From the NCBI GenBank assembly GCA_001793235.1, contig MGHM01000020.1, positions 33,677 to 97,676 of the forward strand: a stretch of DNA of 64,000 nt. Direction: 5' to 3'. The notes beneath the pieces are model-generated. The model did not search any database and was not told where the DNA came from. It worked only from the letters and a program-made list of their open reading frames with translations. Both the position numbers and the translations under genes were made by a program. The DNA comes from Candidatus Woesebacteria bacterium RIFCSPLOWO2_01_FULL_44_24b (GTDB taxonomy: Bacteria > Patescibacteriota > Microgenomatia > UBA8517). Shown in pieces: positions 6,642-64,000 of the stretch. The stretch's first letter is position 1. Each line of letters begins with the position of its first letter.

Positions 6642-6826
6642 ATTTTAAGGTCCAAGCTTTGTATTTTACACTTTGAATAACTGGAAGAAAAGATTTTGTC
6701 ATTATACGAAATCAAACGTCATTGGACCAATTCGCACCAGTAAGCTTAACGACTTGCGTCGCTTCCACTGCTGGCCGATTAAACCGATGTTCTCTCGGAG
6801 GTCTCATAACGAACCCTCATCTTAGG

Positions 6827-6863
<37 letters not shown>

Positions 6864-7096
6864 ATGGGAATGTAGCTACCCGGCGCTGCCACTGATGTGA
6901 CAACCGGCACACTAGGGATTCCCCCATCCCGGTCCTCTCGTACTGGGGACAGCTCCCTTCAAGGTTCAACGCACACACCGGATAGAGTCCGAGCTGTCTT
7001 GCGACGCTCTGAACCCAGCTCACGTAGCACTTTAACGGGCGAACAGACCGACCCTTGGGAGGTACTTCCCCCCCAGGATGTGCTGAGCCGACATCG

Positions 7097-7938
7097 CTTT
7101 AAACCCATCTACTTACGTAGTGGCCTGACTATACCTTCGTCCTCTACAACATGAAGTAGGACGCCGACGTGTTATATGAATTAAAAAATTCATATCTACT
7201 CCCTTACGAGCTAGTCGATACGGGGTTATATCGGAATTTTGTACCGCATACTTTTAATTATGTGCGGGTAGATTGTTTCCCTGAGTGTTGGAGTACTTGA
7301 GTATAAGGTTCGTATTCTAAAGTACGTTTTATCCTTATTTAATCGTGACTCTATTCCAAGTTCTCCCAAACTTTTTATTAAATTACCTTGACTCTTTAAA
7401 TCAAATTGTTGGCAATTAAAATAACTGCTTCTATATGTTTTTGAACCATCGTCCATATACCAGACAGCTAAAGATAGTGGGGATAACTTTAAATTATCCG
7501 GAATTATCTTTTTGCCATTCAGGTAAAATCTGCCATAGAAAACAGTAAGTTCGGGAATGCTTTTGATAAAGAATCTGTAACCAACACGGCCTGCATTGCC
7601 TCGATAAGCTTTGGGAGGAGTGATGACAATATCTTTTAAAATTTGATATTTCCAATCAACGTACTCTTTTTGCTTTATAAGCGAAGCTTGTGAACTTCGT
7701 TCATCGAATGCGTAATTTGCAAATGCGCATTAGTTTTCTTTCTCAAATATCCATCACCAAGGATGCAACCCAAAATTATTTGTTGTTGAATATCCGATAA
7801 ACTTCCCACGGTGTTGTCCCCTGAATTCAGCTTAACCCAAAGTTAAACCGAATTTCAAGTTGGAGTTCACCGTTATGAGTCGGTATTTTTAAAACAGCAT
7901 TCCGGTATTTCTACCGGAAGACCCCGATGTCATTGTTG
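7097..7938 (-). mobile_element. Group I intron in 23S rRNA at an E. coli ~L2500-equivalent site
   Basis: The exon junction is reconstructed as '...GTTCGCTACCT | intron | CGATGTCGGCTCAGCACATCCTGGGG...'. The 5' exon ends in U and the intron ends in G, as expected for group I; the ~842-nt insert carries a LAGLIDADG ORF. Confidence 0.7.
7226..7830 (-). pseudogene. Intron-encoded LAGLIDADG homing endonuclease, disrupted by a frameshift
   Basis: Frame A from GTG gives 'VGSLSDIQQQIILGCILGDGYLRKKTNAHLQITHSMNEVHKLRL*', which is the first LAGLIDADG motif. A +1 frame then continues '...KQKEYVDWKYQILKD...LAVWYMDDGSKTYRSS...KIPI*', carrying the second motif. The ORF track lists only the 76-aa 3' fragment (7226-7456). 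Confidence 0.6.
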
Positions 7939-9294
7939 AGGTAGCGAACCGCATCGTCGATATGGACTCTCGGATGCGACTACTCTGTTATCCCCGGCGT
8001 AGCTTTTATCTATTAAGCTCCGTCCGCACCCATTGCGAAACGGAGGATCACTAAGACCTACTTTCGTACCTGCTTGGCCCATCGGCCTCGCAGTCAAGCT
8101 GGCTTATACCTTTGCGCTTACCCCACGATTTCCATCCGTGGTTAGCCAACCTTTGCGTCCCTGCGTTACCTTTTTGCAGGGTACCGCCCCAGTAAAACTG
8201 CCCATCTGACACTTTTCCCGGACGCGTTTCAAGCGTCCCTGAGTAAGATCTGCCACATTTTAAAGAGAGGTGTTACATTGGCGTCCCGCAAAGCGGGACT
8301 CCCTCTTACGCTAGACAATTAAAATGCACAGCTCAATGCCAGAATACAGTAAAGCTGCACGGGGTCTTTTTGTCCTGGTGTGTGTAGGCCGCGTCTTCAC
8401 AGCCATCGCAATTTCGCCGAGTGATAGTTTAAGACAGTTGTCAGCTCGTTACGCCTTTCGTGCGGGTCTGAACTTACCAGACAAGGAACTTCGCTACCGT
8501 AGAACAGTTATAGTTACTGCTGCCGTTTACTGGAGCTTCATTTCAGAGCATCCCGCCAAAGGCGGGGCACCCATCCACTTAACTTACCAGCACTGGGCAG
8601 GCGTCAGCCCGTATACTTAAGCTTTCGCTTTTGCACGGACCTGTGTTTTTGGTAAACAGTCGACTGACAATCGTTAGCTGCGATCCCTACACCATAAATG
8701 GTGAGGGACAGGACATCTTGCGAACTTACGTCCAGCTAATTTGCCGAGTTCCTTAAACTACCTTCTCTCGCTCGCCTTGGTCTACTCGACCAACCCACCT
8801 GTGTCGGTTTGCGGTACGGCTCGCTTTGATACTCACTGCGAATTTTTTCTTGTAAACTGAAACGGTCAGAATTGGCGAACTCTCGCTCACCTCTGCATCG
8901 CCGCTTAATTAATCATCTTGATGGGTTTTCCAATCAAGACTATCTCACGGCTTACACTCCAATCAATAAGAAGCTCTGACGCTCCAATTCAGTCAATCCC
9001 CAGTTGCATGCAGTCCCTTGCGGGTGCAAACGCATCAAAACAAGTACGGGAATATTAACCCGTTATCCATCGACTACGCCCTTAGGCCTCGCCTTAGGTG
9101 CCGACTTACTCCCGGAGGACGAACCTCGCCGGGAAAACCTTGGGTTTTCGGCGTCCCGAATTCTCATCGGGATTTCACGCTACTCATACCGGCATTCTCA
9201 CTTCCAAGCGCTCCACCATGGTTTCCACCACAGCTTCACTGCACTTGGAACGCTCCCCTACCACCTCGCTCGCAGAGCGAGAAATTCTAAATTT

Positions 9295-9425
9295 AAAATT
9301 TGAAATTTTTAATCAAATAAAAATACTAAAATCTAAACTTCAAAAATTAGAAATTAGATATTAAAAATTGATTTAAAATTAAAAACTAAAAACTAAAAAT
9401 TCTCGTTCTACGAACGAGATCCGTA
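9295..9425 (-). other. AT-rich expansion of ~130 nt inside 23S rRNA at the helix-45 position
   Basis: Between the conserved flanks 'GGGCTAAAGTATACTACCGAAGCTACGG' and 'GGTAGGGGAGCGTTCC' (reverse-complement sense), the normal ~25-nt helix is replaced by '...aaaatactaaaatctaaacttcaaaaattagaaattagatattaaaaattgatttaaaattaaaaactaaaaactaaaaat...'. Bases 9382-9410 of the tail are a noisy ~7-nt period rather than a clean tandem repeat. Confidence 0.5.
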
Positions 9426-9502
9426 GCTTCGGTAGTATACTTTAGCCCCGCGAAATCTTAGGCGCGGAATCCCTTGACCAGTGAGCTGTTACGCTATCTT
9501 TA

Positions 9503-9537
<35 letters not shown>

Positions 9538-10923
9538 TTTTGGAATTCCACTTCCTTAAACACTGAGTATACATTTTGGGACCTTAACTGACGGTCTGGG
9601 TTGTTTCCCTTTCGTCTCTAGAGCTTAGCCCCTAGAGACTGTCTAGTCCGTTAATGTGATTGTAATTCGGAGTTTGATTAAATCGCCTTGGTTTCCCTTG
9701 GCGACCCATTCAGTAGCTCTACCTCCAATCCACCTAGCGGACCACGGTGCCCATACACCTTTCGGGGAGAACCAGCTATCTCCAGGCTCGTTTGGCATTT
9801 TACCCCTAGCCACAAGTCATCCGAGCATATTGCAACATACAACGGTTCGGCCCTCCTTCCCGCTTTCGCGGGAATTCAGCCTGCTCATGGCTAGATCGCC
9901 TGGTTTCGGGTCTATCATGCACTACTAATTGCACTATTAGTACTCGCTTTCGCTGCGCTTTTGAGCCATAAGCCCTTAAGCTTGCAGTACACGATAACTC
10001 GCCGGTTCATTCTTCAATAGGCACGAGATCACTCGCGCTCTGCGCGAAAGTTACGAAGTGATTAAGTTAATAAGTTATTAAGTTTTGTTTTACTTAATCT
10101 CTTAATCGCTTAATGTCTTCATATCTTTTGTGCAAAGCACAAGCTCTCTCGGTTTGTCTGCAAACAGTTTCATGTTCTATTTCACTGTGCGTTCCGCACT
10201 TCTTTTCACCTTTCCCTCTCGGTACTTGTTCACTATCGGTCCTTTGTTATATTTAGCCTTGGAGGATGGTCCCCCCAGATTCCCACAGATTGTGACCGTG
10301 GTACTCAGGTGCCCACTAGGCTGATAATTAGTTTTGCTTACGCGAGTTTCACGCTCTTTGCTCATCCATTCCAGAATGTTCTGCTACCAATTATCAATGC
10401 CATATCGTGAGTCCTACAACCGATCACCCCATTAGATAAAAATATCTAACGGGGCAAAATTTGGGCTGTTGCCGTTTCGCTCGCCGCTACTTAGGCAATC
10501 TCGTTGATTTCTCTTCCTCACCCTACTTAGATGTTTCAGTTCGGATGGTTCCCTCGCCTGCAGCTATATTCCGGTAAACCGGAAATTTTACCACAGTGTG
10601 GCCCAGGATGAACTGGGCCAGGTTTCCCCATTCGGACACCGCCGGATCAAAGCTTCGTGGCAGCTCCCCGACGACTTTCGCGGCCATGTACGTCCTTCAT
10701 AGGTAACAAAGGCCAAGGTATCCACTGTTTGCATTTTTTAGACGCTTGATTCCGTACAATCCCGCTGAGCGGGACGGACACAACTCCCTCGAGTTGTATA
10801 CGGAATCGCCTTTTCTTCCAGTTGTCAAAGTACAAAATATTAGAGTTAAAGAGTAAAAGAGTAAAAGGTAAAAGTTTGGTCTTTCACTCTCTTGCTCTCT
10901 CGCTCTTTCACTCTAAGTGGGTG

Positions 10924-10997
10924 GACCTGGGCGGACTCGAACCGCCTACCTCCTCATTGCAAATGAGGTGTTCAAACCTGCTAAACTTCAGGCCCAA
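10924..10997 (-). tRNA. tRNA-Ala (anticodon UGC)
   Basis: Reverse complement 'GGGCCTGAAGTTTAGCAGGTTTGAACACCTCATTTGCAATGAGGAGGTAGGCGGTTCGAGTCCGCCCAGGTCCA' folds as a cloverleaf with a G3:U70 pair and anticodon loop 'TTTGCAA'; it sits immediately upstream of the 23S gene. Confidence 0.85.
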
Positions 10998-11040
10998 GTC
11001 TTACAGATTTTAAAAATAAATGTGCATGGTTTTTTCTTCG
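10998..11040 (-). promoter_or_regulatory. Candidate promoter region for the tRNA-Ala/23S/5S unit
   Basis: AT-rich segment 'catgcacatttatttttaaaatctgtaagactt' with a -10-like 'TAAAAT' ~12 nt upstream of the tRNA-Ala 5' end, lying downstream of the upstream gene's terminator. Confidence 0.3.
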
Positions 11041-11075
11041 AAACAAAAAACCGAGCTTCTAAGCTCGGCAATCCA
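11041..11075 (-). terminator. Rho-independent terminator for the 11186-12436 gene
   Basis: Minus-strand sense 'CCGAGCTTAGAAGCTCGG' is an 8-bp GC-rich stem, followed by 'TTTTTTGTTTCG'. Confidence 0.6.
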
Positions 11076-11185
11076 TGAGTCCTATCCTTTTTCAGGCACG
11101 CACTAGGTGCGGCTTTGTTGTAATAGCAGATTAAAAGAAATTCTCATTAAGTTTCCGAACTTAGGTAAAAAGTATTATATAGTAC

Positions 11186-12436
11186 TTACAGAGCCCCGTC
11201 AACCAAGCTCCAAATGTCCCTGACTCCATCGCTTTTTGGCTTTCTTGGGGAGCTCATCATCTTTTCAAAGACTCCCGCCTTCAAGCACCATTGTATAAAT
11301 TCTGCAGATTTTTTGGGGTTTGCCATCAGTGGTATGCCTCGCCATTTTTTCGCTTTAGCTATCACACTCTTGTCTCTCGCCCAGAGCCGTTCTTGCTCTT
11401 CTTTTGATGGAATTAAATTGTTCCTAGCCAGAAACCAGAGATTATCATACTCCTGCCTCCCAACGGGTTGAGTAAAAAGAAGGATTACGCCACCTGTTTG
11501 CCTTGGAGTATAAAGGGCCTTAAAGGCCTGCTCGCTTGGCTTGGTCACCTCAAGTGCAAGTGTATTTTTTTGCATTACCTTCTCATAGCCCACTACCACC
11601 AGTCTGTCGTAGGAATGGCTATAAACTTCGGTGTATGCAAGCTTACCCATCTCAGCCAAAAACTGCTTAGTATAGGCCGAGTCCCTCGAGGTCACATAAA
11701 ACCTGAAACGGCTCTCAAGCTCATTTAGCCTCATGGCAAGTTCGCGGTAGAAATCAAGCCCAACGGCCGCACCTGAAACCGGCAAGCTCACTTTTATTTT
11801 GACCTTACTTTGAGCTTGAGCCTGCTTAAACTTGTACTCAAACTTGGACTCTTTGAGCTCATGCCCGAGTTTCAGGCTCAAGGGATAATGAACTACCTCA
11901 GTGTGAGGAGCGCCAAGCCTGAGCCCAGTGAGCCTACTCGGAACTATGGTGAGGTCAGCCCCGGGTACGCTCCAGGCTTGTTGGGGGCTATCATCGGTAA
12001 CGACCACAACGAGCTTGACCTCAAATCCTTCAGCCTCAAGGTCAGGTTTGATGGCACTAATCTGGTGGGCTAGCCCAAAGTGCGTAGACACAAATACCAC
12101 TCGTTTGGGGCTGGGCTTAAGGCCTGTGAGCATAGCCTCAACCTGAGGCTGAAGTGCCTTCGCCCTTAGCCTCAAGATGTGTGTATAAATGCTCGTGAAA
12201 ACACGCTCAGCAACCCCGTACTGCAGGGCTTCGGCAAGCTCACGGAAAACCGGATTATTTGAGCTCAGGCGGTGCATAAAAGTGGTGGTCGAGTCCAACG
12301 AGCTAAATAAGCTCACCCTAGCACCCTTGGGCAAGCCCTCCATCAAGGCATAAGCTACTCGAAGGTGCCCAAGGCCAGCCTTGGCAAAAGTAAGCACAAT
12401 GAGCGTGTCGGGTGAGGTAAGATTTTCGAGAGCCAT
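11186..12436 (-). CDS. Hypothetical protein, possibly a GT-B fold glycosyltransferase (MurG/MGDG-synthase-like)
   Basis: 416-aa ORF with the N-terminus 'LIVLTFAKAGLGHLRVAYALMEGL', a Rossmann-like start with a conserved His. GC content is visibly higher than in surrounding genes. The assignment is weak. Confidence 0.45.
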   Translation of the reverse strand: MALENLTSPDTLIVLTFAKAGLGHLRVAYALMEGLPKGARVSLFSSLDSTTTFMHRLSSNNPVFRELAEALQYGVAERVFTSIYTHILRLRAKALQPQVEAMLTGLKPSPKRVVFVSTHFGLAHQISAIKPDLEAEGFEVKLVVVVTDDSPQQAWSVPGADLTIVPSRLTGLRLGAPHTEVVHYPLSLKLGHELKESKFEYKFKQAQAQSKVKIKVSLPVSGAAVGLDFYRELAMRLNELESRFRFYVTSRDSAYTKQFLAEMGKLAYTEVYSHSYDRLVVVGYEKVMQKNTLALEVTKPSEQAFKALYTPRQTGGVILLFTQPVGRQEYDNLWFLARNNLIPSKEEQERLWARDKSVIAKAKKWRGIPLMANPKKSAEFIQWCLKAGVFEKMMSSPRKPKSDGVRDIWSLVDGAL

Positions 12437-12487
12437 AATTCAGTTTACATTATTGACAAACATACATACATATGTAATTATGTATGT

Positions 12488-12748
12488 ATGCCAAACCTAG
12501 TCAGAACGACCATCTTACTTCCCGAAGATTTAGCTCAAGCAGCCAAGATGAAGGCATTACAAGAGAAAAAATCCCTCAGCGAGCTGATTCGCGAGACACT
12601 TGAGCCCAGAGTTTCCGGAGCCAAACCTGCTAAACCAGCTGGCGACCCAATGGCCAGCTTGGGAGTGTTTAAGATTGGAATCGATAAAATATACAACAGA
12701 CGATCTGAGCTATATGAAGAGCACCTCCAAAACAAACTCAGTGGCTAA
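12488..12748 (+). CDS. Ribbon-helix-helix antitoxin (VapB/CopG-like)
   Basis: 86-aa protein 'MPNLVRTTILLPEDLAQAAKMKALQEKKSLSELIRETL' with an RHH signature; its stop codon overlaps the downstream PIN-domain gene start. Confidence 0.55.
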   Translation: MPNLVRTTILLPEDLAQAAKMKALQEKKSLSELIRETLEPRVSGAKPAKPAGDPMASLGVFKIGIDKIYNRRSELYEEHLQNKLSG

Positions 12749-13178
12749 ACAAGTACTTTTCGACACAAATGTGCTTATATATTCGCTCGACTCAGCATCG
12801 CCTCAATTTGAGGCTGTGCGCAAATTGTTTGCCAGAGTAAAAAATGGTGAGATTGAGGCTGTTGCCGCTCATCAAAACATCGTTGAGACAGAAAATGTAC
12901 TCGTCAATATCTATAAGAAGAGCTTAGATGAGGCAAGAGACGCAATTGACAATGTCTTGTTTAGCTTCAATTTCAGCTTAATCTGTCCGCTTCCGAGCAC
13001 AATTTCGTTATATCACAGACTAATCCAAAGGTACTCAAGCAAGACTAAAATTGATATCTATGATATTTATTTAGCCTCGACTACGCTCGTTAACGGAGTA
13101 GACTCGATAGCAACATACAATACCAAGCATTTCGAAGGCCTTGGGATTACTGTTATTTCTCCTGGAATTGGTACTTGA
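12742..13178 (+). CDS. PIN-domain ribonuclease toxin (VapC family)
   Basis: 'VAKQVLFDTNVLIYSLD...' is a PIN N-terminal motif with conserved acidic residues. GTG at 12742 overlaps the antitoxin stop codon ('GTGGCTAA'); an alternative in-frame ATG lies at 12714. Confidence 0.65.
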
Positions 13179-13335
13179 CACCTATCACTCTCTGTTGTAT
13201 ATTGCTAACTATCAATTAGTACTTCTTTAATCTTCTATATAACGATTAGCTTAATCTACTAAATAAATATTAGATTTTAAACATCCATTTGATTTTCCCG
13301 GAGCGGGGTTTTTGTTTCAATAGACTTGTTTTAGA

Positions 13336-13376
13336 GGAGGGGCATCCTGTTCCTTTTGGGAACAGGGCTCCCCTTC
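13336..13376. terminator. Long imperfect hairpin between convergent genes (candidate bidirectional terminator)
   Basis: 'ggaggggcatcctgttcc ttttg ggaacagggctcccc' has an 8-bp perfect inner stem plus a GC-rich extension, followed by a second hairpin 'tctgagacacagtctcaga'. Confidence 0.3.
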
Positions 13377-13514
13377 TGAGACACAGTCTCAGAACTTTTC
13401 CATCGGAAACGAACAATAGAAAGGTAAACAATTGCTGTTTACTCATTACTATTTATTAGTGACCGGTGAAGTACCTTAACATTGCAAGCGATTCTGTGAA
13501 GCTCATCAAAGAGC

Positions 13515-14084
13515 CTAACTCTTTTTGCTAAATGGCAGTAAATCTTTTTTGGTAAGAAGTACGGAGCGAAGGCAAGTTTTCAAAAGTGCATAGCTGGGCT
13601 TAGCCTGAAAGCCAATGTAACAAATAGTTTTCCCGGCCGCCTGGCATTCAGAAACTGCTGGAATTAAATCCGAGTCGGAGCTAATTAAATATGCGGTGTC
13701 GTATTTATCACGAAAGGCACCAACCAAAAGTCGGGTTGCGATATTTACATCAACGCCCTTTTTGTGGTAAGCCTTAGCAACCTTAAGCATATAACCAAGC
13801 TATACCTCAATGCCTTGACCAATAAGATTGCCAACAAGAATATTCTGAGAGCGAAATAGTTCGTAACTTTTAGGATTATTTCTCTCAGTTCTGATAGCGC
13901 CGACAAAATAAACCGAACGTATCAGTTTTTCGGTCTTAACCAGAGACTTAAAAAAGCCCATATATGAAAACTTAAGGCTACCTCTGATACCAAGATCTTT
14001 AAGGCGGTGGTAAAAATTACTGCCGTCCACAAAGACAACTGCACGAGGTTTGGAGGATTTCTTGCTCATTATTAAATGTAGCAC
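13515..14084 (-). pseudogene. NYN/LabA-like (PIN-related) domain gene interrupted by a single in-frame TAG
   Basis: ORFs 13800-14084 ('AVVFVDGSNFYH...YFVGA...') and 13515-13790 ('KKGVDVNIATRLL...AYLISSDSDLIPAV...GKTICYIGF') are in the same frame and together form one LabA/NYN domain. They are separated only by TAG (13800-13802) plus three codons ('IEV*LGYMLKV'). TAG is used as a normal stop elsewhere, for example in radA. Confidence 0.6.
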
Positions 14085-14299
14085 AAAAATACCCCGTGAC
14101 TAAAAAATCACGGGGGGAGTTAGTAAAAGTATAGTAGCAAAAAGAAGTTGATATTTCAAGTATTAAAAAGGCTTATACAGGCTTTTTGACGAGCTTCACA
14201 GTAAGAAAGCCCCACGTCGCTCCATTCGGAGCTATGTTAGGGGTGAAAAAAGAAAGAAGTGCTCGCCATGTGGCGAAGCTTTACGTGGACTTCTTGTGG

Positions 14300-14420
14300 G
14301 TCACACAGAGGTTAGGAATGAAGTAGCAAGTAGAATGTAGAAAGTAGTATGGGAATTTTGTATCTCCCTTGCTACATGCTTCATGCTACATACTACATGT
14401 TTCCTAGCTTCTCTGTGACT
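14300..14420. repeat. ORF-less inverted-repeat copy of the heptamer-repeat IVS-cassette ends, with an extra outer inverted repeat
   Basis: Left arm 14321-14357 'aagtagcaagtagaatgtagaaagtagtatgggaatt' and right arm 14371-14400 'gctacatgcttcatgctacatactacatg' are inverted copies of the inverted repeats flanking 57583-57951. An outer imperfect inverted repeat flanks them ('tcacacagag', 14301-14310; 'ctctgtgact', 14411-14420). Confidence 0.5.
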
Positions 14421-14460
14421 CAATAAGGAGTTCACTAATCATGTCCAAGGAGGACAAGAA

Positions 14461-15777
14461 ATGCGTACATGGATTATCGGATTAATTGTGGTAGTCGCCA
14501 CACTTTCTGTCGGCCTACTGCCAGCAATGGCGTGGGATGGGCATGTCGATGTATCTTATTCGTGCGACGGCGGGCTCACGTATTACGAGGCTTCTGCTTC
14601 GTCGTCGTGGCCTGGTTTTCAGGTTGATTGGGGGGGAGATTCCCATCGAGGGAGTCTCTCTGAAGGAGAATCTGCATCAGGCACAGCCGTGTTTTTCTGG
14701 CCGGAAGTAGGTCATCACTTTACGGCTTCATGGTCGGCAGAATTTCAGGTAGAATGCCAATCTGAAGAACCAAACCATCCGCCACGGCGCACCGTTGTGC
14801 ACCACAACAACCGACCTCGCCCATTCAACACAATGTGCGTTTTGAACAACCCAGATGGGCTGTTCTCAAGCGGTGGCGTTGAGGGGCTCAACGGCGCGTT
14901 CTGGACCTACCAGAATGATGGCGGCTATGAGGGGAACCTTGTGGTTGCAAACATCAACTGGCGAACGTCTGACGGCACAAGTTTCGTGCTAGCGGGAGAC
15001 CCTTCTGGGAATTCCACACAGGCTAGGGTTGTCGACTTAGACAACGCCAATCCCTGGTCACGCTGTGAGTTGGTTCAGCCCGAGTCGCAAGGCCAAGGTG
15101 GTGGTCCAGCAAATCTTCCTGAAATTCAGGATTGGTGGTGGGACGTAGTCTACACCAAGGAAGAGGCTGAACTTATCTACTTGCGAGTGTCGAACATTTT
15201 TGAGGATGAACGTGATCCTGCATTCTGCTGGGAACACGCTCCTGAAAAACCACCCGCGTGGGTACGTGTCCGTATCATGAATGGTGAGGAGCTCATCATG
15301 AGTTTCGAGCCGACTTTCATTGAGACGGAGCGCCGGCCCAACAATATTAGTTGCTGGGAATGGGAGTACAACCTTCTACCTGATTGGCATGTGCTTTATG
15401 ACGCCCAGTTCGTAGGGGTTCCGCTTATCACTGAGCGAGTCGACATCTCATATCGTGGGATGGAAAAACCGGCAGCTGGATGGTGGAATGTTCACGAAGA
15501 AGGTCTGGCTCTCTACCCCGGTGACGATGAGTCCCTGCTGTCAGCAGAGATGAACTTCGCACTCAATATTGAGAGCGAAGAAGTTGCTAAAGTAGAAGCC
15601 GAAGAAACGGTAGAATACACCGTTGTCCCAACAGACACGCTGAGCGGCATTTGTGCGCAATTCGGCGCAAACCAGATTTATGGCCAGTCAGGCTGTATCG
15701 AGCAGGTCAAACTGCTTAATGGCCTTGAAGGGTCAATGATCACGGTTGGCCAGGTGCTGATCGTCCCGCAAAGCTAG
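14461..15777 (+). CDS. Secreted protein with a C-terminal LysM peptidoglycan-binding domain
   Basis: Signal peptide 'MRTWIIGLIVVVATLSVGLLPAMA'; a Shine-Dalgarno sequence 'aaggagga' upstream; the C-terminus 'YTVVPTDTLSGICAQFGANQ...VKLLNGLEGSMITVGQVLIVP' is a LysM domain. GC content and codon usage are atypically high for this window. Confidence 0.7.
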   Translation: MRTWIIGLIVVVATLSVGLLPAMAWDGHVDVSYSCDGGLTYYEASASSSWPGFQVDWGGDSHRGSLSEGESASGTAVFFWPEVGHHFTASWSAEFQVECQSEEPNHPPRRTVVHHNNRPRPFNTMCVLNNPDGLFSSGGVEGLNGAFWTYQNDGGYEGNLVVANINWRTSDGTSFVLAGDPSGNSTQARVVDLDNANPWSRCELVQPESQGQGGGPANLPEIQDWWWDVVYTKEEAELIYLRVSNIFEDERDPAFCWEHAPEKPPAWVRVRIMNGEELIMSFEPTFIETERRPNNISCWEWEYNLLPDWHVLYDAQFVGVPLITERVDISYRGMEKPAAGWWNVHEEGLALYPGDDESLLSAEMNFALNIESEEVAKVEAEETVEYTVVPTDTLSGICAQFGANQIYGQSGCIEQVKLLNGLEGSMITVGQVLIVPQS

Positions 15778-16308
15778 TCTCACTAAAAAGTGAAACGAAC
15801 ACCTCCCTTTCCATTTGCAATAGAACGCAAATCCGAATACTACGCTTGAAAGACAACGTGGCTAGCCTTTACGGCAAGTAGGATTATGCAGTCTATAGCA
15901 TACAACGATAGCCGCTAACACAGGGCGAATCAGGGACTTGTTAGTAGTTTTACTTCTCTTTCTTTCCTAGCTTCGGCTAGTTAAATCGCATTGCAACTCG
16001 CTCAGCTTAAGCTGACGCACGAAATTTCCGTTCGCGGAAACTGGTGCTCGGTCTAAGATCCGTAGCGAGTTTGACTTTATTTCAGGTGGAGATAGCTCTG
16101 CTTGAGGAAGATTGGAAATTTGGGAAATCCGTGCGGATTTCATTTTAGGAATTTATTCCTAATCTCTAAACCATTTTCTCCTTTCATCTTTTCCTCTCGC
16201 CTCTCTATCTCCCCCTGTACCATTTACCGGTGTATGCCGGTACTGAAGAGCTCAAAAGAGCGAAATGGTAGTACTTTAAAATCTAAAACGAAGTTGGTAT
16301 ATTGGAGT

Positions 16309-16623
16309 ATGGCAAAGAGGAGAACGCTGACTCAGGCCGATGTTGATGTTTTGAAAAAAGAAGTCTCATCTGCGGTATTGAAAGCAGTAGTACCTCAGAT
16401 AAAGACAGCCGTGTCTTTGGTAATAACAACGGAGTTATCCGAACAGGAAGAAAAATACGAGAAGAAGCTCGAGGAGTTCAAAAGCGAGTTCTTTGACAGG
16501 GTTGATCCTATTCTCAAGGAAGTTCCTGCAAGCCGTGAAGAACGGACAGTTCAGGCACATCAAATCGCCAATCTTTCAGACAGAGTTGAGAAGGTTGAAA
16601 AACACCTCGGACTGGCAGCTTAA
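16309..16623 (+). CDS. Hypothetical coiled-coil protein
   Basis: 'MAKRRTLTQADVDVLKKEV...EEKYEKKLEEFKSEFFDRV...' is charged and helical. The ORF-track entry (16102-16623) probably overextends the 5' end, and the start codon is uncertain. Confidence 0.35.
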   Translation: MAKRRTLTQADVDVLKKEVSSAVLKAVVPQIKTAVSLVITTELSEQEEKYEKKLEEFKSEFFDRVDPILKEVPASREERTVQAHQIANLSDRVEKVEKHLGLAA

Positions 16624-16740
16624 CCCAACTTCATAATAGTGAGTAGTGCAAAATGGTTAGCCATTTCTAGTTGACCATTTTTCATTACTCACTACCCAGT
16701 TATAACAAATACTAGATAGTAGAATTACTAGATAACAAAA

Positions 16741-16770
16741 ATCCCCCATCGAAAGGTGGGGGATTTTTTG
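16741..16770 (+). terminator. Rho-independent terminator
   Basis: 'ATCCCCCATC gaaa GGTGGGGGAT' is a 10-bp stem, followed by 'TTTTTTG'. Upstream at 16634-16700 lies a separate 20-nt inverted repeat ('tagtgagtagtgcaaaatgg' / 'ccatttttcattactcacta'). Confidence 0.55.
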
Positions 16771-16821
16771 TGGCTTAAATTTACTTATCAGCCTCGGTAT
16801 GGTACTATTTTCGTACTTCTG

Positions 16822-16893
16822 GGGTGCGTGGCTCAGTGGTAGAGCGTCGTCCTGATAAGACGAAGGTCGATGGTTCGATCCCATCCGCACCCA
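16822..16893 (+). tRNA. tRNA-Ile (anticodon GAU)
   Basis: 'GGGTGCGTGGCTCAGTGGTAGAGCGTCGTCCTGATAAGACGAAGGTCGATGGTTCGATCCCATCCGCACCCA' has anticodon loop 'CTGATAA'. This is the tRNA normally found in the 16S-23S spacer; here it is on the strand opposite to the rRNA genes. Confidence 0.85.
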
Positions 16894-16921
16894 CCCAACC
16901 TACTTCTGATACAATTAAATC

Positions 16922-19054
16922 ATGGCTGAGCTAACTACTCTTTTTCTCAAAGTCCCCCGCGGCAATGAATATACTCCTGAGGCGGCGCAGACTTTTTTAT
17001 CCGCCTTAACCCAGCTTAATTTTCTTTCCCGCTGGGAAAGACTCACCGGCAGGCACCCTCAGCCTTTGGCCCTTGAGATTGTCCTTCATAACCAACAAAT
17101 CCGCTTTATGATTGCCGCAGACGCGGAGCTTGCGCCATTTGTGGAGGCGCAGCTCCAAAGTAACTACCCCCTCGTTATAGTCGAAAAAACTAAAGACCCA
17201 TTGTCTCAAGCAGGAATTTTAAACACGCAAACATTAAAACTTGCCCACGGCAATTACTATCCACTTATGACTTACCCCAGTTTTACCGATGTGGACCCGT
17301 TAAGCTCGGTGCTTACAGTTTTGTCCAAAGCCCCGGCGGAGGAGCTAATAATAATTCAAATTGCGCTCGAGGCAATAAGCGGCTCGTGGCAGCAGGCTAC
17401 TCAAAAAACTCTTGAGCGTGGCATTCGTGACCGCGAAGGCAACACCACTCCCCTTCCGGACGCCGCGATTATAAATGAGAAAATAAGTTTTCCCGGCTTT
17501 GGAGTGACTTTGCGAATTGCAGCCAAGCAAAAACATACACTAAATACTTTAGTCAGTGCCTTTGGGGTATTTACAAAAACGGGCGGCAATTCCATTTCTG
17601 TTAAAAAGAAGGGCTTGCTTTCCAAAGACCGGACGCTTGATTACCTTGTTTCAAGGCGCGTTAGCGGAAGCGATGTTTTAAATATTGCCGAGCTCGCGAC
17701 TCTTTGGCACTTGCCAAGCGAGAAAGTCAAAATCAGCTCGATTGTCTGGGGCAATGCAGTCCTTTCAGAGGCTCCGGACAACTTGCCATCGGCCCTTGGA
17801 ATGAGCGAGGATGAGCGCAAGGAAGTCAACTTTTTTGCCAAAACTCAGTTTAAAAATACCGAGGCGATATTCGGGCTAAAGGATGTGGACCGCAGGCGCC
17901 ACGTCTGGGTTGTCGGCAAAACCGGAACCGGTAAGTCAACTCTCATTGCCAACATGGTTATTGATGACCTGAAAAAAGGCCGGGGTGTGGCAGTCATTGA
18001 CCCACATGGCGACCTTTGCGAGACGGTCCTCAACTACATTCCAAAAAACAGGATTAACGAAACTATATACTTTAACCCGGCGGACAGAGATTATCCAATT
18101 GTCATTAATCCCCTGGAAGTAAACACCAAAGAGGAAGCGGAGCTTGTAGTTTCCGGGCTTATGTCAATTTTTACCAAAGTCTGGGCCAACGTCTGGTCTG
18201 CCCGCATGGAGTATATACTTAGAAACTCGCTTCTGAGTTTAGCCGAAATCCCGGGTTCAACGTTGATTGATGTCTTGAGGCTTCTGTCCGAAGAAGATTA
18301 TAGAAACAAAATGGTTCAGAAAATGCATGACGAGACCTTGAAAAGCTTCTGGGTCAATGAATTTAATAAAATGCCAGACAAACTCCGCGCCGAGGCAGTC
18401 TCGCCGATTCAAAACAAAGTCGGCCAATTTGTGACTTCCCCCATGGTAAGGAGTATCTTAAGCCAGTCAAAAAGCACAATATCTCTGGGACAGGTTATGG
18501 ACCGCGGCATGATATTTTTGGCCAACCTTTCCCAGGGGCGCTTGGGCGAGGACAATGCGGCCTTACTCGGGGCAACTCTCATCACTAAGTTTCAACTGGC
18601 CGCAATGCACAGGGTTGATGTCCCCGAGAGTGAGCGCCATGATTTCCACTTGTTTGTGGATGAGTTCCAAAATTTTGCAACTGACAGCTTCATCAAAATT
18701 CTCTCAGAAGCCCGGAAATACAGGCTTAACTTGATGCTTGCCAACCAATACATGGGGCAAATTCCAGAGGGTGTCCAGAAGGCAATTTTAGGAAATGCCG
18801 GTTCACTCGTGAGCTTTTCGGTTGGTGCTGACGACGCGGCCATTATTCACAAAGAATATGCCGAGGTTTTCTCACAAAATGATTTGGTGAATTTGGCGAA
18901 CTTCCAGATTGCGGTGAAGCTTATGATTGATGGCCACAGCACCCGACCGTTTCTGGCCCACACTCTCCCGCTCCCTGCATCAAGTAACCTGAATAAACAA
19001 AAAGTATTGGAGGTTTCAAGACAGAGATGGAGTAAGAAGATTAAAGAGGGTTAG
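16922..19054 (+). CDS. FtsK/TraD/HerA-superfamily P-loop ATPase (TrwB/TraD-type coupling-protein-like ATP-binding domain; no N-terminal transmembrane segment)
   Basis: Walker A 'VVGKTGTGKSTLIAN' followed by 'VAVIDPHGDL', and Walker B 'HLFVDEFQNFAT'; 710 aa. The architecture matches conjugative coupling-protein or DUF87-type ATPases. Confidence 0.6.
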   Translation: MAELTTLFLKVPRGNEYTPEAAQTFLSALTQLNFLSRWERLTGRHPQPLALEIVLHNQQIRFMIAADAELAPFVEAQLQSNYPLVIVEKTKDPLSQAGILNTQTLKLAHGNYYPLMTYPSFTDVDPLSSVLTVLSKAPAEELIIIQIALEAISGSWQQATQKTLERGIRDREGNTTPLPDAAIINEKISFPGFGVTLRIAAKQKHTLNTLVSAFGVFTKTGGNSISVKKKGLLSKDRTLDYLVSRRVSGSDVLNIAELATLWHLPSEKVKISSIVWGNAVLSEAPDNLPSALGMSEDERKEVNFFAKTQFKNTEAIFGLKDVDRRRHVWVVGKTGTGKSTLIANMVIDDLKKGRGVAVIDPHGDLCETVLNYIPKNRINETIYFNPADRDYPIVINPLEVNTKEEAELVVSGLMSIFTKVWANVWSARMEYILRNSLLSLAEIPGSTLIDVLRLLSEEDYRNKMVQKMHDETLKSFWVNEFNKMPDKLRAEAVSPIQNKVGQFVTSPMVRSILSQSKSTISLGQVMDRGMIFLANLSQGRLGEDNAALLGATLITKFQLAAMHRVDVPESERHDFHLFVDEFQNFATDSFIKILSEARKYRLNLMLANQYMGQIPEGVQKAILGNAGSLVSFSVGADDAAIIHKEYAEVFSQNDLVNLANFQIAVKLMIDGHSTRPFLAHTLPLPASSNLNKQKVLEVSRQRWSKKIKEG

Positions 19055-19768
19055 TTATCTGTTGTTCCACCAGTCTCGAAGTTCATCAATCACTTCTCCC
19101 GTTTCTTCCCTTAACTCACCAAGTATTTCTTCGGCCTGCTCGGCTGTGTCATTTAAGAATTCCCGTGCCTCATCTGTAAAATCAGGGCACTGTATCGTTT
19201 CGCCTGTGTGATTGATAATTTCGTCCAAGGCATAATAGGGTGCCGTAACTTCCCCACCAGGTAATGGTAAGGCCTCATCGTCAAGCACTCGTCCCGAGGT
19301 TGCATTAATCCTGAGGCCGTATGGCAATGCTTCACTCTCGGTAACTGGCCAGTAATATACATTAAACTCGTCGTCTGTTCTTGCAAGAGGCTCTCTTTTG
19401 CCCAAATGTGGTTCTGCCATTTCTAAAGTGCAATTCACATTATCCATAAAACCGTATACTTGGCCTTGCCCGTCTGCCAAGACTGCTACAACTCTGTTTC
19501 TATCGGGACCGAATATATCTTGTCTATACTCCAGATAGCCTATAATTCTGGGCGACTCTAGGGCGACTTGACCTTCTCTTCTATCTATCGCAGTTAATGC
19601 TCGAATATTTGCTGCATCTGTTGCCGCATACGGATCAGTCTCTGGAGTTGCTTCTTGTGTTGGATTTTGCTCTAGAGTTTGCAAGAAGACAGGAGCGAAG
19701 AAGCTTACTCCTCCTGCGGCCGCTAACTCAATAAACTCTCTTCTTGTTAAACCCTTTCTTTCTTCCAC
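19055..19768 (-). CDS. Hypothetical exported protein (twin-arginine-like signal)
   Basis: N-terminus 'MEERKGLTRREFIELAAAGGVSFFAPVF' resembles a Tat signal (T-R-R-x-F-I); acidic C-terminal region. Confidence 0.5.
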   Translation of the reverse strand: MEERKGLTRREFIELAAAGGVSFFAPVFLQTLEQNPTQEATPETDPYAATDAANIRALTAIDRREGQVALESPRIIGYLEYRQDIFGPDRNRVVAVLADGQGQVYGFMDNVNCTLEMAEPHLGKREPLARTDDEFNVYYWPVTESEALPYGLRINATSGRVLDDEALPLPGGEVTAPYYALDEIINHTGETIQCPDFTDEAREFLNDTAEQAEEILGELREETGEVIDELRDWWNNR

Positions 19769-19788
19769 AACTTATTATACTTGAGGTG

Positions 19789-20964
19789 TCAATTCGTAAA
19801 TTCAAAACTGGCCAGCATATTGTCAAAGACTTGTTGTTCCCCTTTATCAACATTATCATCCCAGGTCATCTGAATAACCGTATTTTTATACCAGATAACC
19901 ACATATGCCCGCCACTTGCCGGTCAGCTCTCCTTGAATAACCTGTGCATCCCCACCGCCTAGTTTTTTAAGTTCAATCTTTGGCGGGTTACTCCAGCCGG
20001 ACAAGGTTCTCGTTGATGAGATAATCTCGCTTGCGGTAAGAGCGGCATTAGTAAGGTTACTTGAAGTCTGAATAACTAAGTTGTTTACTGTCTTATTACT
20101 CGCGTCGCGGCTTATTTCTGACTTATTGGCATAGATCCCCTCTTTTTCGTCTTTCTCGGCGGTCAGCGTCCATTCTGACGGATACTTGATGGTGTAATTA
20201 AAAGTAGTATTTTCAAAAGTCTGCCAGCCTGAGGTGTCGACCAAAAAAATAATACTATCTATGATTTTTTGGAATTCTTCTTCTTTTTCTGGAGAATCAA
20301 CAAAAAAATTTATTATTAATTCATTGACAACAATCTGCCACTGATCATCGAATGAAGCTTTTACAGCATCTTTACCTCCTACTCTTATCTCTTCAACTTC
20401 CGCTTCTGTAAAATCCGTAAACCCTGGTTTTTCTGGATAAATAGTCAGTAATTCTGTATTGTCTTCCCCAATACTCACAGAATTTTCCTTTTCATCAAGC
20501 ACTTCATAATCCTCAGGGATAGTCATCTGAACTAATAAATCTATATTTTTATACAGCTTTGTGGGCACAGGTGTGGGCGTGGGAGCCGCAACCACCAGAG
20601 CTTCGGTTACTAAAGGGGTGATAGTTGGGGCCGGCGCGCGCATGGTGTAATTATTTCCCGTAACGCGGGCTACAAAATAAATAGTGGCAACCAGAAGTAC
20701 CGCCGGGATGAGAAACAAAAGCTTTCGCAAGGGATGATGCTTGACCATAACATTGGGGCTTGACGATGATGGTGGCGGTGGCACAATTTCCACAACCGGC
20801 GCCTCCGCCACTGGTTGGGGAACTACTTCAACAGTCGGTGTAATCTCTTGGGCTGGCACCTCCTCAACACTTAAATTTGGACGATGACTTGTATCAAAGC
20901 CCTCCGGCGAGCCCCGGGCAGAATCACTTGCCCCGAGCGTAGTCTCTGACGAAGTGGGGTCCAT
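19789..20964 (-). CDS. Single-pass membrane hypothetical protein with a Pro-rich N-terminal region
   Basis: 391-aa ORF; Pro/Val/Glu-rich N-terminus, a transmembrane segment 'LLFLIPAVLLVATIYFVA', then a large extracytoplasmic domain. Confidence 0.5.
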   Translation of the reverse strand: MDPTSSETTLGASDSARGSPEGFDTSHRPNLSVEEVPAQEITPTVEVVPQPVAEAPVVEIVPPPPSSSSPNVMVKHHPLRKLLFLIPAVLLVATIYFVARVTGNNYTMRAPAPTITPLVTEALVVAAPTPTPVPTKLYKNIDLLVQMTIPEDYEVLDEKENSVSIGEDNTELLTIYPEKPGFTDFTEAEVEEIRVGGKDAVKASFDDQWQIVVNELIINFFVDSPEKEEEFQKIIDSIIFLVDTSGWQTFENTTFNYTIKYPSEWTLTAEKDEKEGIYANKSEISRDASNKTVNNLVIQTSSNLTNAALTASEIISSTRTLSGWSNPPKIELKKLGGGDAQVIQGELTGKWRAYVVIWYKNTVIQMTWDDNVDKGEQQVFDNMLASFEFTN

Positions 20965-22060
20965 GGTTATTCATTGTATACCAATTAATTCCACCTTGTC
21001 ATTCCCGCGAAAGCGGGAATCCACACTAATAATCTGGTCTGGTTACAATAGATTCCGGATCAAGTCCGGAATGACAATGAAGTTTCTCTTGGCAGCCTGA
21101 CAGCGATTGAAATATGGAACCCTACGACCCCATCACCATTTCAAGTGACTAAATTAGTTTTCACTTCAAATTAAAGTCTTGCTAATTTAATAACCAGAAA
21201 TGGTGAGGGGAAGAGTTCGGTTTATTTTCCCCAAAACCGTGACTTTAAAGGGGGGTGTTAATCCCGTGAGATAGTCTTGCGACATCTAACAGGACGTGTG
21301 TTTATTCACACTCCTTAGAAAGGAGGTGATCCATCCGCTCCTTCCAGAACGGATACCTTGTTACGACTTAAGCCTTATCGCTAGTTTCACCTTCTTCCGA
21401 TCACTCGGAATTCGGGTGCCCCTAACTTTACTGCCTTGACGGGCGGTGTGTACAAGACCTGAGAACGTATTCACCGGGATTTAGCTGACTCCCGATTACT
21501 ACCAATTCCGCGTTCATGAGGGCGAATTGCAGCCCTCAATCCCCACTGAGACATCGTTTATGGGATTAGCTCCGCCTTACGGCTTGGCAACCCATTGTCG
21601 ATGCCATTGTATTATGTGTGTAGCCCTGGACATAAGGGCCATGCTGACCTGACGTCGTCCCCACTTCCTTCTGATACAAAGATCAAAAAGTCTCCTATGA
21701 TTATTCAACATAGGACAGGGGTTGCGCTCGTTACCCCACTTAAGGGAACACCCCACGGCACGAGCTGACGACGGCCATGCAACACCTGTGCTATCATCCC
21801 AAATAAATTTAGGATCATCCCAATTTTCATCAGAACTAAAACGATAGCATGTCAAGTCCAGGTAAGGTTCTTCGGTTTGTCTCGAATTAAACCACATAAT
21901 CCACTGGTTGTGCAGGTCCCCGTCAATTCCTTTGAGTTTTAAACTTGCGTTCGTACTCCCCAGGCGGTCCGCTTCACGCGTTAGCTTACGCCCCTCTCCC
22001 GCTAAGCGGGAGAAAAAAGCTAGCGGACATAGTTTACGGCTAGGACTACAGGGGTCTCTA

Positions 22061-22928
22061 CTATATTGTTACATTCTCTAATTAATAGAGAAGATCTTGT
22101 CATTTCTGCAAGATTCTACATATTACTATGCAGCTCGGACTATATCATAACCCGTCCCGTTAGATAATTTATCTAATGGGATTGGGTCCCGACATGTAGT
22201 CTCTACGGGGTCTGTATTCTCGCTGAATAAGGAAGAAATTTATATTTAAATTCCGGTAAAATGAATTTGAAAACTTGTTTTCGAAGTTTACTCAAACTTT
22301 GTTTAGGAAAATAAATTATATCTCTACCCTTATTTTTGTGAGTTAAAGTTTCAATCTCAAAATTAGTGAGTATTGCTTCTTGCAACCTTTGTACATCTTT
22401 CGCAGTAAATGAATGAGTTTGGATGGACAGTCCAGCGTATTCTGCCGAACCATCATCCATAATCCATACTGCAAAAGAAAGTGGATTGCTTAGCAATACA
22501 TTTATGTTTGCAGGCACAATCTTTTTAAAAGACGGGTAAAATAAGTCATAATATGCAGTAAATTCTGGATGGGTATGAGTGACGAATTCGGCAAATTTAT
22601 AATCTTTTTTACCAACTCGCTGCTCAAAAACATTAACATCCATTGAAATAAAATTTGCAAATACAAAATATTTATATAAAACTAATGGAAGTTGATTTCT
22701 CGAGTGCTTAATATGCAATCGAGCATTCTTTCCATGAAGTTTTATTGCTCCATCTCCTAAAAGTGTCCCTACCAACACAGCCTTTTGAGTTTCACTTAAA
22801 CAGACTTCCCTCGGTATTGTCCTCATAATTTCAGTATACTAAAGATATACCGAAATAGTAGGATATTCACCGATACAGTCAGTTTTTCTCACTGCTAATT
22901 ACTTAGCAGGGGGACTAGAGTTTTACTC
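22061..22928 (-). mobile_element. Group I intron in 16S rRNA at the E. coli position ~788 site
   Basis: Exon 1 ends '...GGGAGCGAAAGGGAT' (E. coli '...GGGGAGCAAACAGGAT'), and exon 2 resumes 'TAGAGACCCCTGTAGTCC' (E. coli 'TAGATACCCTGGTAGTCC'). The 5' exon ends in U and the intron ends in G; the ~868-nt insert contains an intact LAGLIDADG ORF. Confidence 0.7.
22203..22826 (-). CDS. LAGLIDADG homing endonuclease (intron-encoded, intact)
   Basis: 207-aa protein with both LAGLIDADG motifs ('AVLVGTLLGDGAI' and 'SFAVWIMDDGSA'), lying entirely within the 16S intron. Confidence 0.8.
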   Translation of the reverse strand: MRTIPREVCLSETQKAVLVGTLLGDGAIKLHGKNARLHIKHSRNQLPLVLYKYFVFANFISMDVNVFEQRVGKKDYKFAEFVTHTHPEFTAYYDLFYPSFKKIVPANINVLLSNPLSFAVWIMDDGSAEYAGLSIQTHSFTAKDVQRLQEAILTNFEIETLTHKNKGRDIIYFPKQSLSKLRKQVFKFILPEFKYKFLPYSARIQTP

Positions 22929-23842
22929 CATCCCTTTCGCTCCCCTAGCTGTCGTTCCTCAGCGTCAAGATTTGCTTAGTCACCCGCCTTCGCCTTCGGA
23001 GTTCCTGTCGATATCAACGGATTTCACCCCTACACCGACAGTTCCAGTGACCCCAACATTCTTCAAGCACGTAAGTATCGCGTCCCTTTCCCCAGTTAAG
23101 CTGGGGTCTTTGAAACGCGACTTTACGTGCCGCCTACGAAACACTTTACGCCCAATAAATCCGGGCAACGCTTACACCCTTCGTATTACCGCTGCTGCTG
23201 GCACGAAGTTAGCCGGTGCTTATTCTACCCCGCCTTTCAGAGGGGTCAAAAGAAGTTTACAACCCGAAGGCCTTCATCCTTCACGCGGCGTCACGGCATC
23301 AGACTTGCGTCCATTGTGCACGATTCCCTGTTGCTGCCACCCGTAGGTGTATAGGCCGTGTCTCAGTCCTATTCTGGGGGTACGCGCTCTCACGCCCCCT
23401 AACCGTCGTAGTCTTGGTAAGCCATTACCTCACCAACAAACTGATGGTGCGCAGGTTCCTCCATCGGCGGGCAGTTAAGCCCTTTGCCCTTGCGGGATTA
23501 TGCGGTATTACCCCACCTTTCGGTGGACTATTCCACACCAATGGGTAGATCCCTACGTGTTACTCAGCCGTTCGCAACTGTTCCGGCAAGCCGGAACCGT
23601 TCTACTTGCATGCATAAAGTACGCCGCCAGCGTTTACCCTGGGCCAGGATCAAACCCTCAATTAAGTGGATTTATATTAAAATCCTGGGACCAATTCCAA
23701 TCGCTGTCAGACTGTCAAAGAGCTTTAGCTCGAAGACCCCTTCGTAGTTCCGGTAAAACCGGAACGAAGTGGGGTCAAAGTTCTAAAGTAATCTTGAAGT
23801 TATTAACCCCGCCTTGTTCGGCTGGCAAGTTAACTTGATTAG

Positions 23843-63639: not shown

Positions 63640-64000
63640 ATGTCTAACAGCTATTTTTACATGCGGGGTAGTGTACGGCTGCACGGAAGGCTCAAAATGG
63701 GCCCGTCTAGTAGCAATATTAGAATGAGAACTTGGCTATATCGGCGAAACCTAAATTATTAAACATGGCAACGCCGAGGAAAGGCCCCACTTAGCGGGGA
63801 ATCCGTAGAGACTATACGCCGAGCCCCATTAGATGAGAAATCTATCTAACGGGGATGACATAGTCCGACACTCACCGAAAGATGAGGTAACAGAAAAGCA
63901 TAATCTTCCAGACCGGGTCCGACTCCCGGCCCCGCAACAAGGCACAATTCTGCGCCTTGCTTCGGAGGGTACAGTACTGTACCCTCCTTCGCCAGGAGCT
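63640..64000. ncRNA. Candidate structured non-coding RNA (identity unresolved; RNase P RNA or similar possible), truncated by the window end
   Basis: 360 nt with no ORF of 60 aa or more on any frame; dense hairpins ('ccccacttagcgggg', 'ccccattagatgagaaatctatctaacgggg', 'ccgggtccgactcccgg') and a perfect 24-nt palindrome 'ggagggtacagtactgtaccctcc'; contains 'GAGGAAAGGCCCC' and 'GGTAACAGAAAAGC', which loosely resemble RNase P conserved regions I and V. Confidence 0.3.

Follow-up and report, generated by a model that had tools for sequence, protein, structure and literature searches.

The single 16S rRNA gene present in a 64,000-nucleotide stretch of contig MGHM01000020.1 (positions 33,677 to 97,676, assembly GCA_001793235.1) of Candidatus Woesebacteria bacterium RIFCSPLOWO2_01_FULL_44_24b, referred to here as the window, was found to carry an 869-nt insert in its 790 loop (helix 24). 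We read this insert as a mobile group I intron, its core IC-type and IC3-like, in the 16S rRNA of a Candidate Phyla Radiation (CPR) bacterium, and put the probability of this reading at about 0.88. The position of the insert, a conserved and covarying RNA structure, and an intact, conserved open reading frame (ORF) are established. An endonuclease-bearing group I intron in a CPR 16S gene is an already known phenomenon, met here in a public genome.

A search with the Rfam model RF00177 identified a complete bacterial small subunit (SSU) rRNA at 21319..23665 on the minus strand (1253.9 bits, model positions 1-1533), with a length of 2347 nt against the 1533 positions of the model. With E. coli K-12 rrsH (locus L201) as the numbering reference, BLAST aligned window positions 23663..22930 with E. 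coli 2-788, and the alignment resumed at window position 22060 with E. coli 789. The gene, on the minus strand throughout, is composed of a 5' exon at 22930..23665 (E. coli 1-788, of which 2-788 were aligned), the insert at 22061..22929, which separates E. coli 788 from 789 (named site S788 in the nomenclature of rDNA introns), and a 3' exon at 21319..22060 (E. coli 789 to the end). The GC content of the intron is 34%, compared with 52% for the exons. In silico splicing gives a 16S gene of 1478 nt with the junction GGGAT/TAGAGACCCC, or, written longer, GGGAT/TAGAGACCCCTGTAGTCC (the slash marks the splice junction). The intron-less 16S genes of two relatives (L020 and L051), with which an initial annotation of this stretch had suggested a comparison, run straight through the same point and agree with the spliced window junction. 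That annotation, made by a model from the sequence alone, had placed the intron at 22061-22928; its 3' end at 22061 was exact, while the 5' end was one base short of the true 22929, as located by BLAST to rrsH, and the minus-strand orientation of gene and intron had gone unmentioned.

A scan of GTDB species genomes with the product of the insert's ORF gave 554 encoding loci, and in 16 of the 80 loci that were fetched the 5' exon was found to end at the identical nucleotide. Both boundaries were recovered for 15 loci, and in these the intron terminates in G and is followed by TAGA(G/T)ACCC. The segment containing loop L6 and the ORF was deleted from the 15 loci and the window copy, and the resulting 16 introns were aligned using MAFFT (alignment A2). 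A hand-drawn structure was then scored on A2 against controls in which the 3' partners were slid by 1-3 columns, and against 500 shuffles. It paired 88.6% of the cells, compared with 38-42.5% in the slid controls, with compensatory double changes in 44 of its 75 pairs and a covariation score of 0.437, where sliding left no more than 0.14; not one of the 500 shuffles matched any of the observed measures. RNAalifold, run without the hand-drawn structure as input, recovered P1, P2, P4, P5, P6, P7, P8, P9 and P9.1, and the same nested helices appeared when the window intron, with its ORF deleted, was folded as a single sequence by minimum free energy (MFE).

The full group I layout from P1 to P10 could be read from the RNA strand of the window copy. 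All of the elements below lie on the minus strand, and the percentages give the cells paired in A2. The internal guide sequence (IGS), 5'-CUCUA GUCCC-3' (CUCUAGUCCC, 22911..22920), was read from the sequence and is supported by covariation, as are the two helices that it forms with the exons. In P1, GUCCC (22915..22911) pairs with GGGAU, the last five bases of the 5' exon (22934..22930), so that U788, the 5' splice-site base at 22930, forms a wobble with G. This U·G was present in 16 of 16 introns, and P1 as a whole was paired in 97.5% of the cells, with an exon G to A change matched by a C to U change of the IGS in 3 sequences. IGS and exon thus co-vary, GGGAU:GUCCC becoming AGGAU:GUCCU in three Acidimicrobiia. 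In P10, CUCUA (22920..22916) pairs over 5 bp with UAGAG, with which the 3' exon opens (22060..22056). The 3' splice site follows a terminal guanosine (ωG) at 22061, which was placed by junction mapping and is invariant in all 16 introns. The P2 hairpin, CUGCUAA-GUAA-UUAGCAG (22892..22909), has 7 bp and a GNRA loop; it was evident from the sequence, and double compensatory changes were found at all 7 pairs in the family.

The P3-P7 core, whose absence the initial annotation had named as grounds for dropping its claim, was present, with 100% of the cells paired in P3 (double changes at 4 of 5 pairs) and 97.9% in P7. The 5' strand of P3, CUGAC (22878..22882), was paired on the basis of covariation with GUCGG (22189..22193), forming a pseudoknot with P7. 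The P4-P5-P5a domain (22811..22873) was supported by covariation, RNAalifold and the single-sequence MFE fold, and consists of P4, UCGGUG (22873..22868) with UACCGA (22816..22811); P5, UCCU.. (22863..22857) with ..AGGA (22826..22820); and P5a, 22855..22846 with 22838..22829. Compensatory changes were found in both P4 (97.9%) and P5 (94.6%), and the joining segment J4/5 holds the conserved GAA. Covariation and RNAalifold also support P6, in which the 5' strand GGGaaGUCUGU (22797..22810) pairs with ACAGACCCC (22207..22218); 80.7% of its cells were paired, with double changes at 7 pairs, and it encloses loop L6, which is filled by the body of the ORF. The 3' strand of P6 (22218..22207) is followed by J6/7, GUAGA (22206..22202), and the 5' strand of P7, GACUAC (22201..22196), as indicated by the Rfam alignment, covariation and RNAalifold; the sequence of this P6'-J6/7-P7 core, CCCCGUAGAGACU, is invariant across the S788 family. 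The 3' strand of P3 (22193..22189), an extended P8 hairpin (22188..22149; 81.3%), J8/7, AUGAU (22148..22144), and the 3' strand of P7, AUAGUC (22143..22138), were placed using the Rfam alignment and covariation, the core pairing of P7 being GACUA with UAGUC. The 3' peripheral domain (22062..22133), for which covariation, RNAalifold and the MFE fold agree, contains P9, CUGCAUA-GUAA-UAUGUAG (22133..22116; 99.1%, 5 double-change pairs), P9.1 with a conserved GAAA loop (22114..22094; 7 double-change pairs), and P9.2 (22092..22074), after which comes a conserved GUAACA tract. RNAalifold also paired the invariant CUAUA of J3/4 with UG/UAG over the 3' splice site (A2 columns 92-96 and 379-383; window approximately 22874..22878 and 22058..22062). 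This pairing, which competes with P10, showed no covariation, only A to G changes giving G·U.

A single long ORF was found in the insert, at 22203..22826 on the minus strand, encoding 207 aa plus a stop. Residues 16-181 of its product matched positions 2-168 of the 168 positions in the Pfam profile LAGLIDADG_2 (PF03161) with 132.7 bits (E 1.6e-38, cut-off 25). Motif 1, LVGTLLGDGAI (22746..22778, catalytic D25), aligns with the corresponding motif of 6x1j_A, and motif 2, FAVWIMDDGSA (22443..22475, catalytic D125), with those of I-SceI and 6x1j_A. The product has 375 homologues, of which 31 were aligned (alignment A1) to give 44 invariant columns, including G20, T21, L23, G24 and D25 in motif 1 and W121, M123, D124, D125 and G126 in motif 2. 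With this Pfam score, and with both motifs and D25/D125 invariant in the 31 homologues, the intact two-motif LAGLIDADG ORF of the initial annotation was upheld. The closest sequence matches in the PDB were 6x1j_A (an intron-encoded endonuclease, residues 9-198) and I-SceI, with E-values of 1e-10 to 1e-9. Ca. Woesebacteria bacterium RIFCSPHIGHO2_01_FULL_44_21 has a 'hypothetical protein' that matches the product with 100% identity. The best inference from the sequence is that the product is an active, monomeric, two-motif homing endonuclease.

Gene and ribozyme core overlap at both ends, a situation for which there are precedents, and the known cases need controlled expression (PMC3984707). The ATG (22826) lies within the 3' strand of P5 and the UAG stop within J6/7, and codons 1-8, which specify the family-conserved MRTIPREV, run through P5', J5/4, P4' and the 5' strand of P6. 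Different members among L001-L021 read the invariant CCCCGUAGAGACU in different frames, all three being used, with tails of ...TP*, ...NPVETVR... and ...PRRDCTP..., and its conservation is therefore at the RNA level. The S788 introns of L017 and L021 retain an intact ribozyme core, but their ORF is cut short or lacks its N-terminal part, which fits the decay phase of a homing cycle.

Several observations weigh against the reading of the insert as a mobile group I intron. The Rfam Intron_gpI model (RF00028), the test that the initial annotation had proposed for the interval, did match the window copy at 22116..22329 (E 1.3e-5), but its 30.3 bits fall short of the gathering score of 50. Although the alignment covers the conserved AGACUA of P7 and GAUAUAGUC of J8/7-P7', it is stretched over the ORF, and the approximately 620 nt of ORF in the P6 loop account for the shortfall. 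An Rfam search at the gathering threshold, limited to 21960..23030, gave no match; even the truncated SSU rRNA was missed, so this result is uninformative. P10 was paired in 73.8% of the cells family-wide, which is moderate support only, and in A2 MAFFT had moved the 3' strand of P2 in the window copy by one column, so that its P2 cells were scored as unpaired though the hairpin is perfect. As for the protein, its start codon and the 8 codons that open the ORF lie in core helices, and no obvious Shine-Dalgarno sequence was seen upstream of the ATG, making the timing and mode of its synthesis uncertain.

Metagenome contigs were searched with a pattern for a core with a short P6, CCGAGGGAAG N5-35 CCCGTAGAGACT, giving 120 loci. 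The sole S788 match of this search was L164, whose 224-nt ORF-less intron (1927-2150) occupies the same junction as that of the window; over 213 aligned core positions the two introns are 85% identical. Located inside SSU rRNA, the L164 intron cleared the Intron_gpI gathering score of 50 with 76.4 bits (E 1.4e-18), so that without the ORF the S788 family does satisfy the curated group I model. The family shows the stages of a homing cycle, the ORF being intact in the window copy, truncated or decayed in L017 and L021, and absent from L164. Together with the covariation and the splice-site anatomy, L164 bears out the group I intron at 16S site 788 that the initial annotation had claimed. Of the two subgroups that it had offered, IC and IE, the core is IC-like by resemblance, whereas IE found no support and was rejected. 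Subgroup IC (IC3-like) is more likely than IE on the basis of the resemblance of the core to IC-type tRNA introns and the GNRA loops L2 and L9. The bacterial IC3 tRNA introns (Azoarcus tRNA-Ile, and cyanobacterial tRNA-Leu and tRNA-fMet) have a compact core closely similar in the segments AUCGGYGAAA, ACRCCGAGG, GUAGAGACUA and GAUAUAGUCC, as well as GNRA loops in L2 and L9, and the tentative IC3-like assignment of the S788 core goes by this resemblance, that to the Azoarcus sequence included. Unlike those introns, the S788 intron is at an rRNA site, has its ORF in L6, and possesses the additional elements P5a, P9.1 and P9.2.

From what is established of group I chemistry, and from the anatomy of the intron, we infer that it splices itself, that its enzyme is an active endonuclease and that it homes. 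The intron would be transcribed within the pre-16S rRNA and would then fold, the IGS CUCUAGUCCC pairing with GGGAU to form P1, with its U788·G wobble, and with UAGAG to form P10, while the P3/P7 pseudoknot would form the centre about which the P3-P9 core folds. The first attack, after U788, would come from an external guanosine held at P7, and the freed 5' exon would in turn attack after ωG (22061). Ligation of the exons would yield a normal 16S rRNA of 1478 nt with the 790 loop of helix 24 restored, and the intron would be released. The enzyme encoded in L6 would be expected to cut intron-less 16S rDNA at S788, about GGGAT^TAGAGACCCC (the intron-less target being written as GCTAGGGGAGCGAAAGGGAT^TAGAGACCCCTGTAGTCCTAGC), and repair from an intron-bearing copy would insert the intron.

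It is conceivable, if unlikely, that the insert is a group I-derived intron which no longer splices by itself and needs its own LAGLIDADG protein as a maturase, or host factors, so that the ORF would be kept for splicing rather than homing. A LAGLIDADG maturase has a bacterial precedent in Thermotoga (PMC3984707), the ORF overlaps core helices, and it is intact and strongly conserved here, yet has decayed in L017, L021 and the 23S intron of the same genome. However, both motifs and the catalytic aspartates are invariant, as nuclease activity requires, and the persistence at S788 of ORF-less (L164) and ORF-decayed copies with an intact core argues that the RNA is independent of the protein.

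Far less probable is a non-intron intervening sequence (IVS), excised by RNase III without ligation so that the 16S rRNA is left fragmented, as in the classical bacterial 23S IVSs. Such IVSs are known in bacteria and are probably present in CPR 23S genes (PMC11270868), but the insert has no terminal stem, the duplex between its termini being no better than that of shuffled sequence (-15.6 kcal/mol, compared with -16.0 ± 3.4 for shuffled sequence; z = 0.1). This, and the presence of a covarying group I core, led us to reject an RNase III-type IVS; the IGS also pairs with both exons, the L164 homologue passes Rfam, and the insertion point is in a functional loop, conserved universally, rather than in a variable helix. 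Since the window comes from a metagenome-assembled genome, an assembly chimera in which a fragment of a mobile element had been misjoined into the 16S gene was also considered, and this we regard as scarcely credible. The same intron is found at the identical insertion nucleotide in at least 16 independent assemblies, including contigs of approximately 1.6-1.8 Mb, which was the ground for rejection; the identical protein was found on 17 contigs of up to 119 kb, and the complementarity between exon and IGS is site-specific.

Two further introns in the window are related to the group I intron at S788. One, a group I intron of 206 nt without an ORF (63693..63898), interrupts a tRNA-Met(CAU) gene at 63662..63938 on the plus strand, following its nucleotide 33 and preceding its nucleotide 34, and scored 67.1 bits on the Rfam group I model; ARAGORN detected this tRNA only after the intron had been removed in silico. 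The 23S gene (6711..10748) contains an 842-nt insert at 7097..7938 on the minus strand, after E. coli U2500, where the exon ends in U and the insert in G. Its LAGLIDADG_2 ORF has decayed to fragments at 7675..7809 (motif 1) and 7226..7456 (motif 2), and an Rfam E-value search of the 23S gene gave no group I match in the insert. The rest of the approximately 1.1 kb of extra 23S length is made up of smaller expansions elsewhere in the gene. A sequence profile of the S788 family, used with nhmmer, matched the tRNA-Met intron (E 8.6e-17) and the 5' half of the 23S insert (E 1.5e-10), and the three window introns therefore share a core lineage. The 16S and tRNA-Met introns also share an extension of P8 (AUUAGAU...AUCUAAC) which is lacking in other S788 members.

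Outside the CPR, the S788 intron and the same endonuclease family were observed in L010, L012, L014 and L015 (Acidimicrobiia/Actinomycetes), L016 (Chloroflexi) and L017 (a bin labelled Clostridia), the Acidimicrobiales copies being on contigs of approximately 1.6-1.8 Mb. In L010, L012, L014 and L015 the IGS is altered to the host exon (AGGAU:GUCCU). These non-CPR copies suggest cross-phylum transfer. A broader account can be offered tentatively, in which one IC-type lineage may have colonised 16S S788, 23S U2500 and tRNA-Met 33/34, the P8 extension private to the 16S and tRNA introns pointing to intragenomic exchange or ectopic transposition; the S788 element may also have crossed into Acidimicrobiia and Chloroflexi with its IGS re-tuned, and translation and ribozyme folding, if made mutually exclusive by the eight core-helix codons with which the gene opens, might let the element switch itself from splicing to homing and back. 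The short-P6 pattern search mostly gave other sites, namely 23S ~2593 (the most frequent), 16S S793, 16S ~1400-1500 and 23S 1931. In L104, L137, L152, L154, L168 and others, a related core is located at 16S S793, 5 nt downstream (GGATTAGAT/.../ACCC); in these introns P6 is short and approximately 840 nt lie downstream of P7, which makes a different position of the ORF within the intron probable.

In a survey by Tsurumaki et al. (2024) of 380 CPR 16S genes, 48% had inserts, of which 35% matched the Rfam group I model, and 43 LAGLIDADG_2 ORFs of ~210 aa were found in group-I-type inserts (PMC11270868). ORF-less and decayed copies were reported at the same sites, with the suggestion that carriers were possibly missed in 16S surveys (PMC11270868). 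The window insert resembles these insertion sequences in its CPR host, conserved 16S region, group I-like RNA and LAGLIDADG_2 ORF of about that length, and at 869 nt is well within the definition used there (inserts of 100 nt or more with E. coli as the reference). The common 16S sites of that survey (16IS4-7, 16IS10) are numbered in its figures only, leaving the identity of S788 with any of them unconfirmed, and I-ShaI, the sole enzyme characterised there, differs from the product of the window ORF in being a homodimer of the LAGLIDADG_1 family that originates from a 23S site (PMC11270868). The window confirms a known pattern, namely that group I introns with an endonuclease gene are frequent in conserved 16S regions of CPR bacteria.

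No characterised CPR rRNA intron, S788 included, and no characterised CPR LAGLIDADG_2 enzyme was found in the literature consulted. An earlier precedent of CPR rRNA insertions encoding LAGLIDADG enzymes was reportedly described by Brown et al. in 2015, and Salman et al. are said to have described in 2012 Thiomargarita 16S group I introns with LAGLIDADG ORFs, giving overlong polymerase chain reaction products. The Thiomargarita sites, reportedly S795, S1078, S1396 and S1495, differ from S788, as does the host phylum; a Thiomargarita locus, L050, encodes a relative 33% identical to the window ORF product. I-SceI, from the omega intron of yeast mitochondrial 21S rRNA, and 6x1j are, like the window ORF product, monomeric two-motif LAGLIDADG proteins of rRNA group I introns, but are distant from it, organellar, and directed to another target site. 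S788 is also a nuclear intron site in fungi and myxomycetes, for example that of Mucilago crustacea Mcr.S788 of subgroup IC1 (PMC8395846). The likeness to such introns is in the E. coli-numbered site; they are eukaryotic nuclear IC1 introns, in whose description no LAGLIDADG ORF is mentioned (PMC8395846).

The effect of the intron on standard primers was checked in silico, the initial annotation having claimed that it disrupts the 785F/806R region and that the organism would be missed by amplicon surveys. Against genomic DNA 806R has 2 mismatches, one at the penultimate 3' base, which is caused by the intron, and the other a G at the W position. The predicted 515F-806R V4 product is 1162 bp instead of 293 bp. 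Mismatches independent of the intron were also found in 515F (1, GCA for GCC), 341F (the 3'-terminal base), 27F (2) and 1492R (1). On this in silico check 806R no longer matches at its 3' end, and the loss from standard amplicon surveys is plausible, in agreement with the literature. Introns of this kind lengthen or break standard amplicons and defeat naive annotation of rRNA and tRNA genes. In the window, the annotation gains a true 16S length of 1478 nt, a predicted homing endonuclease in place of a 'hypothetical' protein, and a tRNA-Met gene hidden by a further intron. The S788 family, with 16 ORF-bearing introns, one ORF-less intron and some decayed copies from several phyla, is a ready set for splicing and cleavage assays.

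The 16S gene in the window is unlinked from the 23S-5S genes, with approximately 10.3 kb between them (10749..21318). Within this region are seven ORFs that reach at least 120 aa together with, on the opposite strand, a tRNA-Ile gene; a tRNA-Ala gene is located directly upstream of the 23S gene.

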